Under the pieces are notes generated by a model that saw only the letters and a list, made by a program, of their open reading frames with translations, made no database searches and was not told the DNA's origin. Of a stretch of DNA of 23,185 nt, positions 15,486-19,577 are shown piece by piece. The stretch lies in NCBI GenBank assembly GCA_022664555.1, contig GCA_022664555.1_4839.1; one strand, written 5' to 3'. The number at the start of each line of letters is the position of its first letter. Position 1 is the first letter of the stretch. Both the position numbers and the translations under genes were made by a program. Source of the stretch: Escherichia coli (lineage in GTDB: Bacteria; Pseudomonadota; Gammaproteobacteria; Enterobacterales; Enterobacteriaceae).

Positions 15486-16142
15486 TTATTTCTTGAATAA
15501 ACGAAGGAACTTCATCATGTTTTCCATGAAAGTCGGCTTCTTGACCTTTTGTTTTACCGGAGCGCCCTGATCATTCAGAACACGACTGACCGGAGGAGTA
15601 GGTGGTGTCGGCGCTTTCGTTTCACAGGCCGGAACGATGTTCACGTCATGATGAGAAGACTCAGATGTAGTGTTAACAACATTGTTCTCCTGGACGACAG
15701 GCTTGACGAGATTCTTTTCGTACTCACGCGCCATGGCCTGATACATCAGATTCAAATCCACCAGATCAACAGACTTGACCTTGCGACGACGCCAATTGGC
15801 GCTTTCTTCGCCATAGAAATCATATCCGTTTCTGATCAGCCAGTGTACGGCTTGTTCAAAAGAACCGAAGACCATAAGCGGAGCGCCCTGGCCTTTCTCA
15901 GATTGTTCCAGGCTACTATAACCCATCAATACAACCTGGCCTTTGATACTCAAATCAAACGTCATACCAAGGTTCGGGATGTTTTTATCGCGGCGGAAGA
16001 ACCCGCCATCACGGTAGACGTAAACAGGCGAAAGGAACTCATTCAGAGTACGCTTGACACCCTTGTATTGGAAGAGTCTGACAATTGGAGGGGTGTCATG
16101 GGAAATCACTTCGTTCAATTCCCAGATAGAAACATTACGCAT
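15486..16142 (-). CDS. hypothetical protein (218 aa)
   Basis: Track ORF; ATG at 16142 with GAGGAT SD 6 nt upstream. Proline-rich linker (KAPTPPTPPV) and basic C-terminus. Confidence 0.6.
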   Translation of the reverse strand: MRNVSIWELNEVISHDTPPIVRLFQYKGVKRTLNEFLSPVYVYRDGGFFRRDKNIPNLGMTFDLSIKGQVVLMGYSSLEQSEKGQGAPLMVFGSFEQAVHWLIRNGYDFYGEESANWRRRKVKSVDLVDLNLMYQAMAREYEKNLVKPVVQENNVVNTTSESSHHDVNIVPACETKAPTPPTPPVSRVLNDQGAPVKQKVKKPTFMENMMKFLRLFKK

Positions 16143-16261: not shown

Positions 16262-16295
16262 GGGATAAAAAGAAAGCCGGATAGGATATCCGGCT
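16262..16295 (-). terminator. intrinsic terminator at the downstream (minus-strand) end of the tRNA region
   Basis: AGCCGGATA-GGA-TATCCGGCT perfect 9-bp stem (16275-16295) followed on the minus strand by TTCTTTTTATCCC (plus 16262-16274). Confidence 0.7.
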
Positions 16296-16352
16296 ATACC
16301 ACATCGATGGGATGGGTTGAAAGACTACACGCTTGCACTGGTACTACCCTAT

Positions 16353-16380
16353 GGGAGAGCGCGTCAGGAGTCGAACCTGA
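16353..16380 (-). pseudogene. tRNA 3'-end fragment (T-arm plus acceptor 3' strand), no anticodon arm found
   Basis: Minus strand reads TCAGG-TTCGACT-CCTGA-CGCGCTC-T-CCC: a perfect 5-bp T-stem with canonical T-loop, then a 7-nt acceptor-like strand. I could not find a matching 5' acceptor, D-arm or anticodon arm within tRNA distance. Confidence 0.35.
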
Positions 16381-16512
16381 AGTCGTCGACGTAGAGAAAG
16401 CTATTTGCATTTCACTATCCTCGCCGCGATTTTCTTAACTTCCTAAACACCCCGATTACGAGAGAGTCGACATGCACATCTTCTAACTCTTCAGGAAGTC
16501 ACGCCCGTAATT

Positions 16513-16601
16513 TGGCGGAAGGTGAAGGATTCGAACCTTCGGGGGCTAAAAGCCCCACTCGATTAGCAATCGAGTCCCTTAAACCTCTCGGGCAACCTTC
16601 C
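16513..16601 (-). tRNA. tRNA-Ser (anticodon GCU), class II with long variable arm, CCA encoded
   Basis: Reverse complement folds by hand into a cloverleaf: acceptor GGAAGGT/ACCTTCC (7 bp perfect), anticodon stem CTCGA/TCGAG with loop TTGCTAA, variable arm GGGGC-TTTTA-GCCCC, T-arm GAAGG-TTCGAAT-CCTTC, discriminator G, CCA. Confidence 0.9.
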
Positions 16602-16821
16602 AATTTGGACGGGCTTCGCACCCGATTGAGCATTTGATCTACCGTAGCCCAACTCCCCGCGCTTCTCAGCGCCGATTGGTTAACTGGCGACCAGTGCCTT
16701 CTGGTTCGATCTCCTAGAAGTTTACATGCTTTGCTGCCGACCATTTCTGGTAGTTAGGGCATCGTTTCCGATGTGGAGTCACCCCATTTTATACACAGCT
16801 GGCTGCAATGCTTACTGTGTT

Positions 16822-16898
16822 TGGTGATCCTGGTTGGATTTGAACCAACGACCAATGAATTATGAGTTCACTGCTCTAACCGACTGAGCTACAGGACC
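16822..16898 (-). tRNA. tRNA with CAU anticodon (elongator Met, or Ile2 if lysidine-modified), CCA encoded
   Basis: Reverse complement: acceptor GGTCCTG/CAGGATC, D-arm GCTC-AGTCGGTTA-GAGC, anticodon stem GTGAA/TTCAT with loop CTCATAA, T-arm GTTGG-TTCAAAT-CCAAC, discriminator A, CCA. G1-C72 pair argues against an initiator. Confidence 0.88.
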
Positions 16899-17802
16899 AA
16901 ATTATTGTGTGACCAACCAAGGACTGTCAACCCTTTATCCCGTTTGTGCATGATCAGTTCATGCAGGCCTCTTTGTGCTGCCTCACGGCATGCGCTTCTG
17001 TTGGTCATTGGCTTACACTGTGGCCTCACAACAGGCGTTTATTTTTCCAGGGCTTTCCACTTGCAAGTCTTGACCATACAGGGATACGGGCTTACAAGAT
17101 CGGGTTGGACACAACTTTGATGGCTCTGGTATTAAAGATCCCGCGTCACCCATAGACATGGTTTATAAATCCAGAGCCATCAAAGTTGCAACCAATGTCG
17201 CAACTCGCAGCTTCCATGCAGAAGAAACTTGTCCTCTAACGCTCGGACCAAACGAGGCTGGCTGGTTGATTCAGAGCCGCTGGTTGCTCCAGCAAGCATG
17301 GGTTGATAGCCCGGCAACATAGAATCACCCAAAGTTGAAGAACACTCAGTGGTACAAGCCAGGGATACCAATTTCAGGTCCTTTGCGAGTTCTTTAAATG
17401 CTCTTCATTTTGTGAACTTGAGAATACTACGCCTGTCTCGGGTTTCCCCTTAGTTCGGCCTCCCAGTCCTCGCCGCGCCGGGTAGCTAACCCTGATGGCT
17501 CGTCTGCTACTGAGTTCTTCTTGGTGCCCACCAGTGTCCGGAATGTGTAGGCATCGCAATCTGCAAGGCATGGTCTATTTCACCCAATGCTCTCTCAAGT
17601 TCACAAATCGAAGTGCCCTGACTCAACAGTATAGCCCAATATGCTGTTATCGTCCACCGGATTGGCCACCCACTTCGTAGATCAACCTTTGGGTTTAAGA
17701 TAAATTGTCAAGGCACTTCGATTTGTGTGCCCTTCACCTGCCAGGGATCAGGGCTGATGGCAAGACTTCGCTCACATCTTTCAAGATACTCGTGAGAATA
17801 TC

Positions 17803-17830
17803 CTCAAAGATGTGGGGCCGTTTTTAGGAG
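17803..17830 (-). pseudogene. tRNA 3'-end fragment (T-arm + acceptor 3' strand + CCA), no anticodon arm found
   Basis: Minus strand reads TTGGG-TTCGACT-CCTAA-AAACGGC-C-CCA, the same layout as the two intact tRNAs. No complementary 5' acceptor (GCCGTTT-like) or anticodon stem-loop could be found 60-100 nt upstream. Confidence 0.35.
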
Positions 17831-18803
17831 TCGAACCCAAATGCTTGGCCAGCGCTGACCTTACATCCCATCTGACTTAGGCAACCCACTCCCAGCCCCA
17901 CAACACTCACTACGGTTAAGATTATTGCGTATGTTGTATGGTCTTGCTGGTCACAACTGAAAGGGCACTTAACAGAAGATAGGTCTGATTGCCTCGGATG
18001 ATTTCTCAGTAGCCTAAATGCCCTTACATGTTGTGTGCCCATTATTAATCACAGCGGGCCACTGCGCCGAATTTGGTGATGAGGAATCGGAAGACCTCAC
18101 TGACTTATAGGCTGTTACGCCGCCATCAGAACTTCGGAATCATTAGCAGTTATTTGCTTGGTCAGTTTCTAAAAACCCGCAAAGTCACGCACAACGAAAA
18201 CGAAAACCTGTTTGAGCACAAGACACCATGTCCTGGGTTCACATCGAAGTGTTTGTCTAATGCCCAAACAGCTTTTCGCTTCAGTGGGTTAACTATACTT
18301 TGTAACCCGTTATTGATAAAACCTTTTATTTTTGTTGGCGAGGGTATCACCATCGATTTACCGGAACTTACGCATCCGGCCTCGCCTGTTGGTGATCCTT
18401 CGAATCCGGGAAGATCAGTAGGAACTATGAATCAAGTTAATTCAACCAACAGGAACCTTGTTGCCCTTTGACGCAACATTATGAACCCTCTATGGAAGAC
18501 TCATAATGTTGTGGCGTGATGGAGATTAGCGCCCCCGACCTCCCCTTATACGTTGGTGTCGACTTGCCAACAGGGTGCTCTCTGATTCTGAGCTAATCAC
18601 GCTACAACAGGGAGTTTCGTTCTCCGACGGTCAGTGCGTCCACCGACACCAGCGAGGTTGATATTACGCCTCTATTCGTCACGGTGCCCTGAGACTGGGC
18701 TTTCCTGGTTTCGGGTTCCAGCCCTACTCCCACCGCGCTATTCGCCTCGTGTTTAATACTTTACTACAGCCCAGCTAATTTGAAAAGTCCTCTCCTCTTT
18801 GAG

Positions 18804-18950
18804 CTACACTGCCCACAGCAGTGCGGGCGAACCTTCGCACAAAACCGGATGCGCCGAAGTGGGCGACTGTTTACCGGACTGATCGGGTAGACCCAGGAGA
18901 GTAAAGGTAATCCCGATCAGGAGGATGAGGAGTAACATCATGTAAAACAT
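18804..18950 (-). CDS. small membrane protein (48 aa)
   Basis: Hand-translated ORF below the track cutoff: MFYMMLLLILLIGITFTLLGLPDQSGKQSPTSAHPVLCEGSPALLWAV. ATG at 18950-18948 with a strong GGAAGGGAGGGAA SD 4 nt upstream; TAG at 18806-18804. One N-terminal TM helix. Confidence 0.45.
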   Translation of the reverse strand: MFYMMLLLILLIGITFTLLGLPDQSGKQSPTSAHPVLCEGSPALLWAV

Positions 18951-19007
18951 AGTGTTCCCTCCCTTCCATGCAACTAACTTTACTGCAATTATTTATTGAA
19001 TAAAGCG

Positions 19008-19577
19008 TTATTTTAACACTTCTAACTTCACAATACGACGCAGAAGGTAAACATATTCGCCAGCAGCTTCATGCGTCATATAATGGGTAGAAGGTGTGGA
19101 ATGAGTGTTCTGGGTTTCTTTTAATCCAACACGTTCTGCCCAACCATTAATAGAGTTCCCATAGAAACCGATAATCGCACCAAAATAAATGCGCCCGCTT
19201 TCTGGCTCTAAAACATAGTTGACAGTGAAGCAAATGTCAGAACGAATAGACTCCAGTTTCATACCAACACGACCTTCAGAGAATTCGTTACGAACATATA
19301 AATGACGGAAGCGATCGCGCCGTGCTTGTGATGATTCTTCCAATTCTTGTCGAAGTGAAGAAGTTATGTCAATATTAAATGAAAATGTTGGATTTCGTAA
19401 ATCAGAACGAGCCAACTCTAAGGCAGATTCAATAACGCGGCGGAAATTGATACTTTTACCTGTCAGGCGTTTCACTTCATCGGTGATTGTTTCAAAAGGG
19501 ATTTTCGTGGCGCGTTCCCCTTCGTATTTTGCTAACAAAGGAATAATGTGTTTCATGATTGCTGTGTTAATGTGCAT
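19008..19577 (-). CDS. hypothetical protein in an AT-rich islet (189 aa)
   Basis: Track ORF; ATG at 19577 with GAGG SD about 7 nt upstream. Visibly lower GC and different codon choice from the surrounding genes. No motif I can assign (no GIY-YIG, HNH, Walker or HAD signature). Confidence 0.6.
   Translation of the reverse strand: MHINTAIMKHIIPLLAKYEGERATKIPFETITDEVKRLTGKSINFRRVIESALELARSDLRNPTFSFNIDITSSLRQELEESSQARRDRFRHLYVRNEFSEGRVGMKLESIRSDICFTVNYVLEPESGRIYFGAIIGFYGNSINGWAERVGLKETQNTHSTPSTHYMTHEAAGEYVYLLRRIVKLEVLK

Follow-up and report, generated by a model that had tools for sequence, protein, structure and literature searches.

The DNA considered here is a stretch of 23,185 nucleotides (nt) of contig GCA_022664555.1_4839.1, from an Escherichia coli assembly (GCA_022664555.1), referred to throughout as the window, and it belongs to an Ackermannviridae phage of the Agtrevirus/Kuttervirus group. 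Between an open reading frame (ORF) ending at 16142 and another starting at 19008 the phage carries a 2.9-kb island without a credible ORF; fGh-Ecl02, RPN242 and CECAV_050 are the closest matches of the region (identity about 94-95%). The island is 83-96% identical across Agtrevirus and Kuttervirus relatives, with coverage of at least 80% in 147 records, and its RNA features all lie on the minus strand, as do its tRNA-Ser and tRNA-Met genes. Two sites in it, elements 1 and 2, had been taken in a sequence-only reading for tRNA 3'-end fragments: decayed tRNA genes, recombination scars or functional minihelices. The subject of this account is the pair of RNA genes, E1 and E2, to which these elements belong, together with a tag-encoding module resembling transfer-messenger RNA (tmRNA) that the same reading overlooked along with the rest of the surrounding RNA-gene island.

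E1 is a 155-nt tRNA-like RNA gene at 16352-16506 (minus strand), delineated by RNAalifold, by minimum-free-energy (MFE) folding and by a covariance model. Element 1 had been placed correctly, at 16353-16380, and had been said to lack a 5' acceptor strand. That strand exists: GGGCGUG (16506-16500), 126 nt upstream of the T arm and six bases past the CCA of tRNA-Ser, pairs with CGCGCUC (16363-16357), and the pairing covaries in relatives. The same 6-nt spacing from the preceding tRNA is seen in Klebsiella phage Menlow. The T arm (16380-16364) reads UCAGG-UUCGACU-CCUGA, with the perfect stem that had been claimed for it, and the acceptor 3' strand that follows leads into U-CCC-A. Unguided consensus folding of seven sequences from four phage groups gave a 7-bp acceptor and a 5-bp T stem capped by a 7-nt loop; where a tRNA has its D and anticodon arms stand two large arms, domains of 62 nt and 48 nt. 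A GUGCAU loop in one of these arms and a GAAAUGCAAAUAGC apex in the other are invariant. Compensatory changes are found in 14 of the 43 predicted pairs, among them acceptor pairs 4:69 (C-G exchanged with U-A) and 2:71 (G.U with A-U) and three pairs of the T stem, and the single-sequence MFE fold of the window copy has the same architecture as the consensus. E1 thus possesses the stacked 7-bp acceptor and 5-bp T stem of a tRNA, with a UUCRANY loop of 7 nt, and the arrangement is backed by covariation.

Scored with a covariance model derived from the seven-sequence consensus alignment, the window copy (16506-16352) reaches 170 bits and those of relatives 85-160 bits; the model recovers E1 in SJ3, Menlow and L013 and adds a copy in L037. 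Homologues are present in fGh-Ecl02, SJ3 (80% identity), Menlow (71%) and an unrelated, metagenomic phage group of the L013 type. By BLAST, full-length E1 occurs in 204 phage records, all Ackermannviridae by name and CBA120 among them, and the genera that carry it are Agtrevirus, Kuttervirus and Taipeivirus. None of these records annotates it as RNA; it is left unannotated or lies under an overlapping 'hypothetical protein'. In L006 and L007 it has shrunk to its last 18 nt or so. Neither ARAGORN, which reports only the Ser and Met tRNAs, nor the Rfam tRNA model, even at E<=10, finds a tRNA at the sites of E1 and E2, which bears out the earlier statement that both lack an anticodon arm; the D arm and the anticodon arm with 5-bp stem, 7-nt loop and U33 that make a cloverleaf are absent from both. 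Because of the consensus fold, the compensatory pairs, the covariance-model matches and the conserved full-length copies, E1 is a complete tRNA-like RNA gene without D or anticodon arms and not a fragment. The proposal that element 1 is a decayed fragment is thereby refuted on the terms that had been set for it, and of the three options first offered the functional minihelix comes closest, with the amendment that the gene is complete and has unusual arms. A tRNA interrupted by a group I or other intron was rejected, there being no Rfam intron match and too short a spacing.

E2 survives in the window as its 3' 77 nt (17813-17889, minus strand), homology to E2 of RPN242, CECAV_050, SJ3 and others starting exactly at 17889. 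It contains element 2, which had been placed some 8-10 nt too low, at 17803-17830: the T arm, UUGGG-UUCGACU-CCUAA, occupies 17840-17824, and its stem, also called perfect, includes one G.U pair. The tail runs on to 17813 as AAACGGC (17823-17817), a discriminator C (17816) and CCA (17815-17813), an N-CCA end being encoded at 17816-17813. Intact E2, as in RPN242, CECAV_050, SJ3, L005 and L024, is 126 nt long (GCCGUUA-UA-UCUG...UUGGG-UUCGACU-CCUAA-AAACGGC-N-CCA); the base that varies among phages (U, C or A) sits at the discriminator position and the CCA is constant. The MFE fold of the full 126 nt is cloverleaf-like, and in SJ3 and L024 another T-arm module ends in CCA only 2 nt ahead of the gene, as is usual for tRNA genes in tandem. 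E2 is missing in Menlow, L006 and L007.

Immediately upstream of the retained part lies a 173-nt segment (17890-18062, minus strand) that only this phage and fGh-Ecl02 possess among the relatives compared, and that matches siphovirus loci of the ST1UNAM/L022 type at about 74-93% identity. The segment displaced the 5' half of E2 and the pseudoknot loop, and it brings a new local partner, GUGGGGCUG (17901-17893), which pairs with CGGCCCCAC. Since homology to E2 begins only at 17889, the native 5' acceptor strand is gone here; E2 in this phage is a recombination product whose native 5' half was exchanged for a siphovirus-type segment. The supposed lack of a 5' acceptor at element 2 thus holds only in the sense that the native partner, GCCGUUA in sister phages, has been lost, and the suggested recombination scar was largely right for this phage, 77 of the 126 nt surviving at the 3' end and the 5' half having been swapped. 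As a separate observation, the segment suggests that unrelated phage families exchange RNA modules where they have short sequences in common (AAAUUCGGCGCA, GUGGGUU). A local helix, GGGGCUG/CGGC(U/C)CC, in which the 5' end of E. coli tmRNA is exactly reproduced, was tried as a tmRNA-type acceptor and rejected: it is confined to the lineage with the 173-nt insertion, is homologous to GUUGUGG.../...CCACAAC helices elsewhere, and leaves a 3-nt gap to the T stem.

About 200 nt upstream of E2 (about 90 nt in sister phages) is the tag module, whose core (18037-18205, minus strand) is made up of a tag frame whose stop codon lies in a hairpin, of a further hairpin and of an H-type pseudoknot that reaches to 18037. 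A Sigma-70-like promoter, TTATCA-16-TATAGT, is predicted before it by consensus match (18292-18319, minus strand) and is conserved in Kuttervirus, Taipeivirus and other relatives. The tag frame (18147-18115) reads GCU AAU GAU UCC GAA GUU CUG AUG GCG GCG UAA, or ANDSEVLMAA*, a tag of 10 residues that looks like a degradation tag. Ten distinct sequences of the tag specify seven peptides (ANDSEVLMAA, ANDDVVLMAA, ANDDAVLMAA, ANDNAYLAVA, ANDNTFLAVA, ANEEMYLAVA and ANDDLMMVAA), every one encoded by 10 codons and UAA. Nine of the 10 codons vary at the third position and 5 of 10 at the first and second, and stops interrupt the +1 frame in all ten sequences and the +2 frame in most. Upstream, no start codon is in frame; U-A stands at -5/-4, as in E. 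coli tmRNA (U85/A86), and the stop codon of the frame sits in a hairpin loop. The structure, specified by us on a 17-sequence alignment as the two hairpins and the pseudoknot, has 98.7% of its cells paired, against 35-44% with slid partners, and 12 of its 25 pairs show compensatory changes, including seven of the eight in pseudoknot stem 2. One pseudoknot is clear; an upstream PK1 was not definable by eye, and PK3 and PK4 were not found.

Set against the known architecture of tmRNA, the module is divided. The mRNA-like half has what is expected: a GCN resume codon, no start, about ten codons, an end in a hydrophobic residue and Ala, and a stop in the helix-5 loop. The RNA is not closed by pairing of its 5' and 3' ends around the tag; there are promoter-like sites immediately before the module, and the tRNA-like domains downstream close upon themselves. 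The G3.U70 pair is likewise absent, E1 having G3-C70 (with G2.U71), native E2 C3-G70 and the lambdoid domain U3-A70; it is seen only in an alternative local helix of fGh-Ecl02, the same position in the window being G3-C70. The tag region gives a weak match to the Rfam tmRNA_permuted model (24 bits; gathering score 47), it also matches non-coding DNA of unrelated phages whose frames score 27-31 bits against tmRNA models, all below the gathering score, and ARAGORN is negative. Because the mRNA-like half is present and the defining tRNA-like architecture is not, the module is filed as tmRNA-like and not as tmRNA. A one-piece tmRNA, in which the 5' strand GCUGUUU (18274-18268) would pair with AAACGGC, was rejected: GCUGUUU pairs locally with CAAACAG (by eye), a match of this kind is not unlikely (p about 0.1), and in sister phages it is the nearby GCCGUUA that serves.

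The tag module is far more widespread than its host island. A 44-nt DNA pattern taken from it retrieved 51 IMG/VR contigs of 9-160 kb, and a search of IMG/VR by the flanking protein gave only three loci. It is present in 595 phage records and matches 656 of 5,426 complete E. coli genomes (137 with at least 80% of the query), at 150 chromosomal and 554 plasmid places; about 600 P1-type plasmids match. Phage HK633 and a lambdoid prophage of E. coli 55989 carry it on the late strand, with Q/pR' on one side and the holin gene on the other. In P1 (tag ANDDLMMVAA) it lies in the C1-controlled leader of the ban operon, directly after the annotated 'dicF-like region' and its terminator and ahead of trnA and trnT, unannotated in a 535-feature record (L069 1414-1966; L068 793-1345). 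No Rfam family reaches threshold on the module at any of these loci. A tRNA-like domain follows on the same strand in many phage types: E1 comes about 25 nt after the module in L037 and about 180 nt after it in L013, and the 55989 prophage has a self-contained UGUGGUG...T arm...CGCCACA domain. No canonical T loop was found near the module in C1, HK633, the P1-type 3' domains or TR2. Literature searches (tag peptides, phage tmRNA, tmRNA-like, T4 stable RNAs, P1) found no description of these RNAs; inclusion in the tmRNA database is possible, and the supplements of the tmRNA database paper list no phage entries. In the siphoviruses ST1UNAM and C1 (L008/L009) the tag-module RNA is antisense in a gap of 550-800 nt between tail-completion and major-tail genes, with its own TTGACA-17-TAGATT promoter and a bidirectional terminator.

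Next to the tag module, at 17952-18035 (minus strand), is a long hairpin, CACAAC-AU-GUAAGGGCA ... UGCCCUUUC-A-GUUGUG, that is a repeated unit. The unit (CACAAC-AG-GUAAGRGCA ... UGCYCUUAY-C-GUUGUG) has a variable apical insert, comes in one to three copies per locus in lambdoid, P1, siphovirus and Ackermannviridae phages, and covaries in its stems; compensatory variants noted by eye and not formally counted are GUAAGAGCA/UGCUCUUAU, GUAAUGGCA/UGCCAUUAC and GUAAAAUCA/UGAUUUUUC. Besides the window copy (18035-17952), copies lie at L065 2425-2495 and 2674-2752 and at L068 1066-1146, 1505-1592 and 1718-1785, and one P1 copy has a T-arm-like GGGUUCGAAUCCC in its apex.

The two tRNA genes of the island, tRNA-Ser(GCU) at 16513-16601 and tRNA-Met(CAU) at 16822-16898 (both minus strand), are called by ARAGORN and Rfam alike. 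A consensus scan places a Sigma-70-like promoter, TTGACA-18-AATAAT (11/12), upstream of tRNA-Met (16901-16930) and a terminator-like hairpin with a U-run directly 3' of E1 (16275-16295), both on the minus strand. Since these predicted sites bracket the three genes, they suggest a single Met-Ser-E1 transcription unit with E1 as its last cistron. The 3' flank of tRNA-Met (16800-16821) is the sequence that follows tRNA-Tyr in fGh-Ecl02 and CECAV_050, and the junction falls in a common CACCA (16822-16830 region); therefore the genes for tRNA-Tyr and tRNA-Asn (and tRNA-Trp) that are found between Met and Ser in relatives, and are absent here and in RPN242, have been deleted. A further tRNA-like gene, 89 nt long, follows tRNA-Ser in L006 (5911-5999) and L007 (5910-5998) and lies between tRNA-Ser and E1 in SJ3. 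ARAGORN labels it 'tRNA-???'; its acceptor, D arm and T arm are normal, and in all three phages a 30-nt insert, CAGGAGAGCUUCGGAAGAACAAGGUGCCUG, replaces the anticodon arm. HK633 and related prophages have the insert as well, in the 3' domain that follows their tag module.

Elsewhere in the island, a conserved non-coding stretch of 870 nt (16931-17800) separates E2 from the tRNA-Met promoter and contains several long inverted repeats, one of which (17105-17134/17166-17195) is matched by Rfam miRNA models and another of which (17602-17622/17707-17727) is 95% complementary; the stretch may be a further large structured RNA. Its equivalent in Menlow (L062 3309-3523, minus strand) passes the Rfam gathering score for the Salmonella small RNA STnc100 (53 bits vs 47), a family for which the window itself has no Rfam match at E<=10. 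The upstream part (18400-19007) holds more conserved hairpins, such as CAACAUUAUGA...UCAUAAUGUUG around 18513-18471.

It is probable, on the evidence assembled above, that elements 1 and 2 are the ends of conserved tRNA-like RNA genes in a phage RNA island, beside a separately promoted tmRNA-like module. Long tRNA-like RNAs of this kind keep the coaxial acceptor/T-arm helix, but other structured domains stand where a tRNA has D and anticodon arms. In tRNAs this helix is what RNase P, the 3'-trimming enzymes and the CCA-adding enzyme recognise, and E1 and E2 would therefore be excised like tRNAs. By this analogy their ends probably act as RNase P/CCA processing handles, the modules being cut from polycistronic transcripts as tRNAs are and persisting as stable RNAs. 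The conserved T-arm and acceptor sequences could serve in addition as recombination points at which modules are shuffled, deleted and hybridised between phages. The sequences, structures, conservation, chimerism and distribution of these genes are matters of observation, and it is their transcription units, processing, stability and any role in translation that we infer.

Several points weigh against this interpretation. Promoter and terminator sites are consensus matches only. E1 ends in U-CCC-A in all copies and not in NCCA, so CCA repair would be needed. An acceptor partner matching in 7 of 7 positions within 200 nt is found by chance at about 19% of random positions; finding a partner is therefore weak evidence by itself, and only E1 has covariation behind it. 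The native E2 acceptor has six pairs and one A-A mismatch, and copies of E2 are about 90-95% alike, so that no compensatory change tests it; in the window, where E2 is chimeric, its T arm is sequestered in the MFE fold. Several genera can also dispense with E2 and other modules, which would fit slow decay of non-essential DNA as well.

A link of the tRNA-like RNAs to trans-translation is possible. We entertain, tentatively and as a good deal less likely than the interpretation just given, that the tmRNA-derived tag module and the self-contained tRNA-like RNAs form an undescribed mobile RNA system that redirects or mimics host trans-translation in infection, that spans Ackermannviridae, P1, lambdoid prophages, Drexler-type siphoviruses and N4-like phages, and that has a topology unlike those of one-piece and permuted tmRNAs. 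Somewhat more doubtful still is a working phage tmRNA of unusual topology, in which an mRNA-like piece would be joined or paired to a self-contained tRNA-like piece that is aminoacylated, enters stalled ribosomes with SmpB and adds a phage-specified tag. The resemblance of the tag frames to genuine proteobacterial tags speaks for it, as do their constant 10 codons plus UAA, the excess of third-position variation (9/10 vs 5/10), the missing in-frame start, the U and A at -5/-4, the stop in a hairpin loop followed by a covarying pseudoknot, and the tRNA-like domain that follows on the same strand in many phage types. None of the tRNA-like partners, however, has the G3.U70 alanine identity pair; the ends do not pair around the tag, and promoters lie just upstream of the module; in C1, HK633, the P1-type 3' domains and TR2 a canonical T loop is lacking nearby; Menlow, L006 and L007 have lost E2; and ARAGORN and the Rfam tmRNA models stay below threshold (24-31 vs 47 bits).

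That all three elements (the third being the recurring tRNA-Met end) are inert debris, decayed tRNA pseudogenes or recombination scars with no present function, is unlikely. Modules are indeed gained and lost among close relatives, the E2 of the window is chimeric and without its native 5' strand, the Tyr-Asn deletion joins tRNA-Met to a foreign flank, and a remnant tRNA-like module (GGCGAGG ... CCUCGCC-A; 18336-18386, minus strand, from the alignment) has lost here the T arm that is intact in SJ3 and L006. Yet full-length E1 is kept in 204 genomes and in an unrelated phage group, and its 14 compensatory pairs and invariant GUGCAU and GAAAUGCAAAUAGC loops, with that wide conservation, are the signature of purifying selection on structure; native E2, for its part, keeps its CCA across phages and is spaced as tandem tRNA genes usually are.

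Improbable, by comparison, is the view that the shared 11- and 12-mers are chance matches with nothing tRNA-related at their sites. With all pairs counted, about 64 repeated 11-mers would arise by chance in 23 kb (our own arithmetic), and the 12-mer AGGAGTCGAACC is mostly T-loop consensus, its identity between the two elements not being preserved in relatives such as SJ3; relatives give no support to E1 and E2 as recent duplicates either. The 12-mer is nonetheless the exact repeat it had been said to be, with two sites (16366-16377 and 17826-17837) where shuffles lead one to expect none, and both sites are 17-nt T arms followed by acceptor-like strands in a conserved context, covarying in E1. 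Chance therefore explains the 11-mer only, and for elements 1 and 2 it is already refuted by the covariation of the E1 fold and the covariance-model search. The 11-mer, TTGGTGATCCT, does recur (two sites, 0.02 expected), at 16821-16831 and at 18389-18399, the latter 2 nt higher than the 18387-18397 first given. The second copy (minus strand, directly upstream of the remnant module) reads AGGAUCACCAA on the minus strand and overlaps ACCAACAGG (18393-18385), which forms with CCUGUUGGU (18453-18445) a 9-bp helix kept in relatives. The GGAUC part of the 11-mer is not conserved (SJ3 has AGAACACCGACAGG, L007 GGAGCACCAACAGG and Menlow GGAGCGCCAACAGG), and the site does not follow the tRNA-Met end of any of these three phages. 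A duplicated tRNA-Met end, as first supposed, is thus unsupported by relatives, and the resemblance is best read as coincidence.

The last alternative, that the island is protein-coding, as several GenBank records imply by annotating small plus-strand hypothetical proteins there, and its RNA-like features incidental, is very improbable indeed: the ORFs are short and lie on both strands, a PHROG search of five found a credible family for none, indels between close relatives have non-triplet lengths (173, 10 and others), and substitutions track base-pairing rather than codons.

Annotation of phage tRNA clusters usually stops at what tRNA finders report, and the DNA between the tRNAs is taken for spacer or dubious small ORFs; at this island it encodes conserved structured RNAs. 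E1 is carried by more than 200 Ackermannviridae genomes, several of them candidates for therapy or biocontrol, and the tag module, which occurs in some 600 phage records as well as in P1-type plasmids and E. coli lambdoid prophages, has escaped annotation even in the heavily curated P1 record. If the RNAs are processed and active, they would give an entry to the 50-year-old puzzle of T4-type 'stable RNAs' and to the manipulation of ribosome rescue and proteolytic tagging by phages. The locus also illustrates modular recombination between unrelated phages, which conserved T-arm/acceptor sequences may drive.

Among known systems, the classical parallel for E1 and E2 as stable processed RNAs would be T4 RNA C. 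T4 RNAs C and D (species 1 and 2 RNAs, rnaC/rnaD) are 119-139 nt long, of unknown function, and lie on the tRNA strand at the 3' end of the tRNA cluster. E1 resembles them in position, as the last gene of its cluster before a terminator, at the distal end of the cluster, on the tRNA strand and with a tRNA-like 3' end; like E1, rnaC has a canonical T arm (CCGGG-UUCGAAU-CCCGG) followed by an acceptor strand (CGUUUCG) with a 5' partner (CGGAACG), and no anticodon arm. Specific homology is lacking: the E1 covariance model gives rnaC 18 bits (E 0.006), within the range of true tRNAs, so that only tRNA-level similarity is left and homology was rejected, and sizes and inner domains differ. With tmRNA (SsrA) the island shares a tag frame with a GCN resume codon and a proteobacterial-type tag, a helix-5-like loop that holds the stop, a pseudoknot after the tag and tRNA-like domains without an anticodon arm nearby. 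It differs from one-piece and permuted two-piece tmRNAs alike in that end pairing does not enclose the tag, G3.U70 is absent and the tRNA-like domains are self-contained and downstream. A tmRNA form that has only the tRNA-like domain and no coding sequence is known from mycobacteriophage DS6A (PMC11915505). The tag module here differs from tmRNA also in its single clear pseudoknot and in scoring below threshold with ARAGORN and all Rfam tmRNA models.

YrlA and other bacterial Y-RNA-like RNAs reportedly have a tRNA-mimicking domain (work attributed to Chen et al., in RNA, 2014). Like E1 and E2 they are non-coding, in some cases phage-encoded, and join an acceptor/T-arm module to another functional domain; unlike them, E1 and E2 have no Rfam match to Y-RNA families, even at E<=10. 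Plant mitochondrial t-elements, the mascRNA of MALAT1 and viral 3' tRNA-like structures are acceptor/T-arm mimics that recruit RNase P and the tRNA 3'-end enzymes, by which the ends of the RNAs are set. These are eukaryotic or belong to RNA viruses, whereas the modules described here lie in the tRNA operon of a bacterial phage and have large conserved inner domains.

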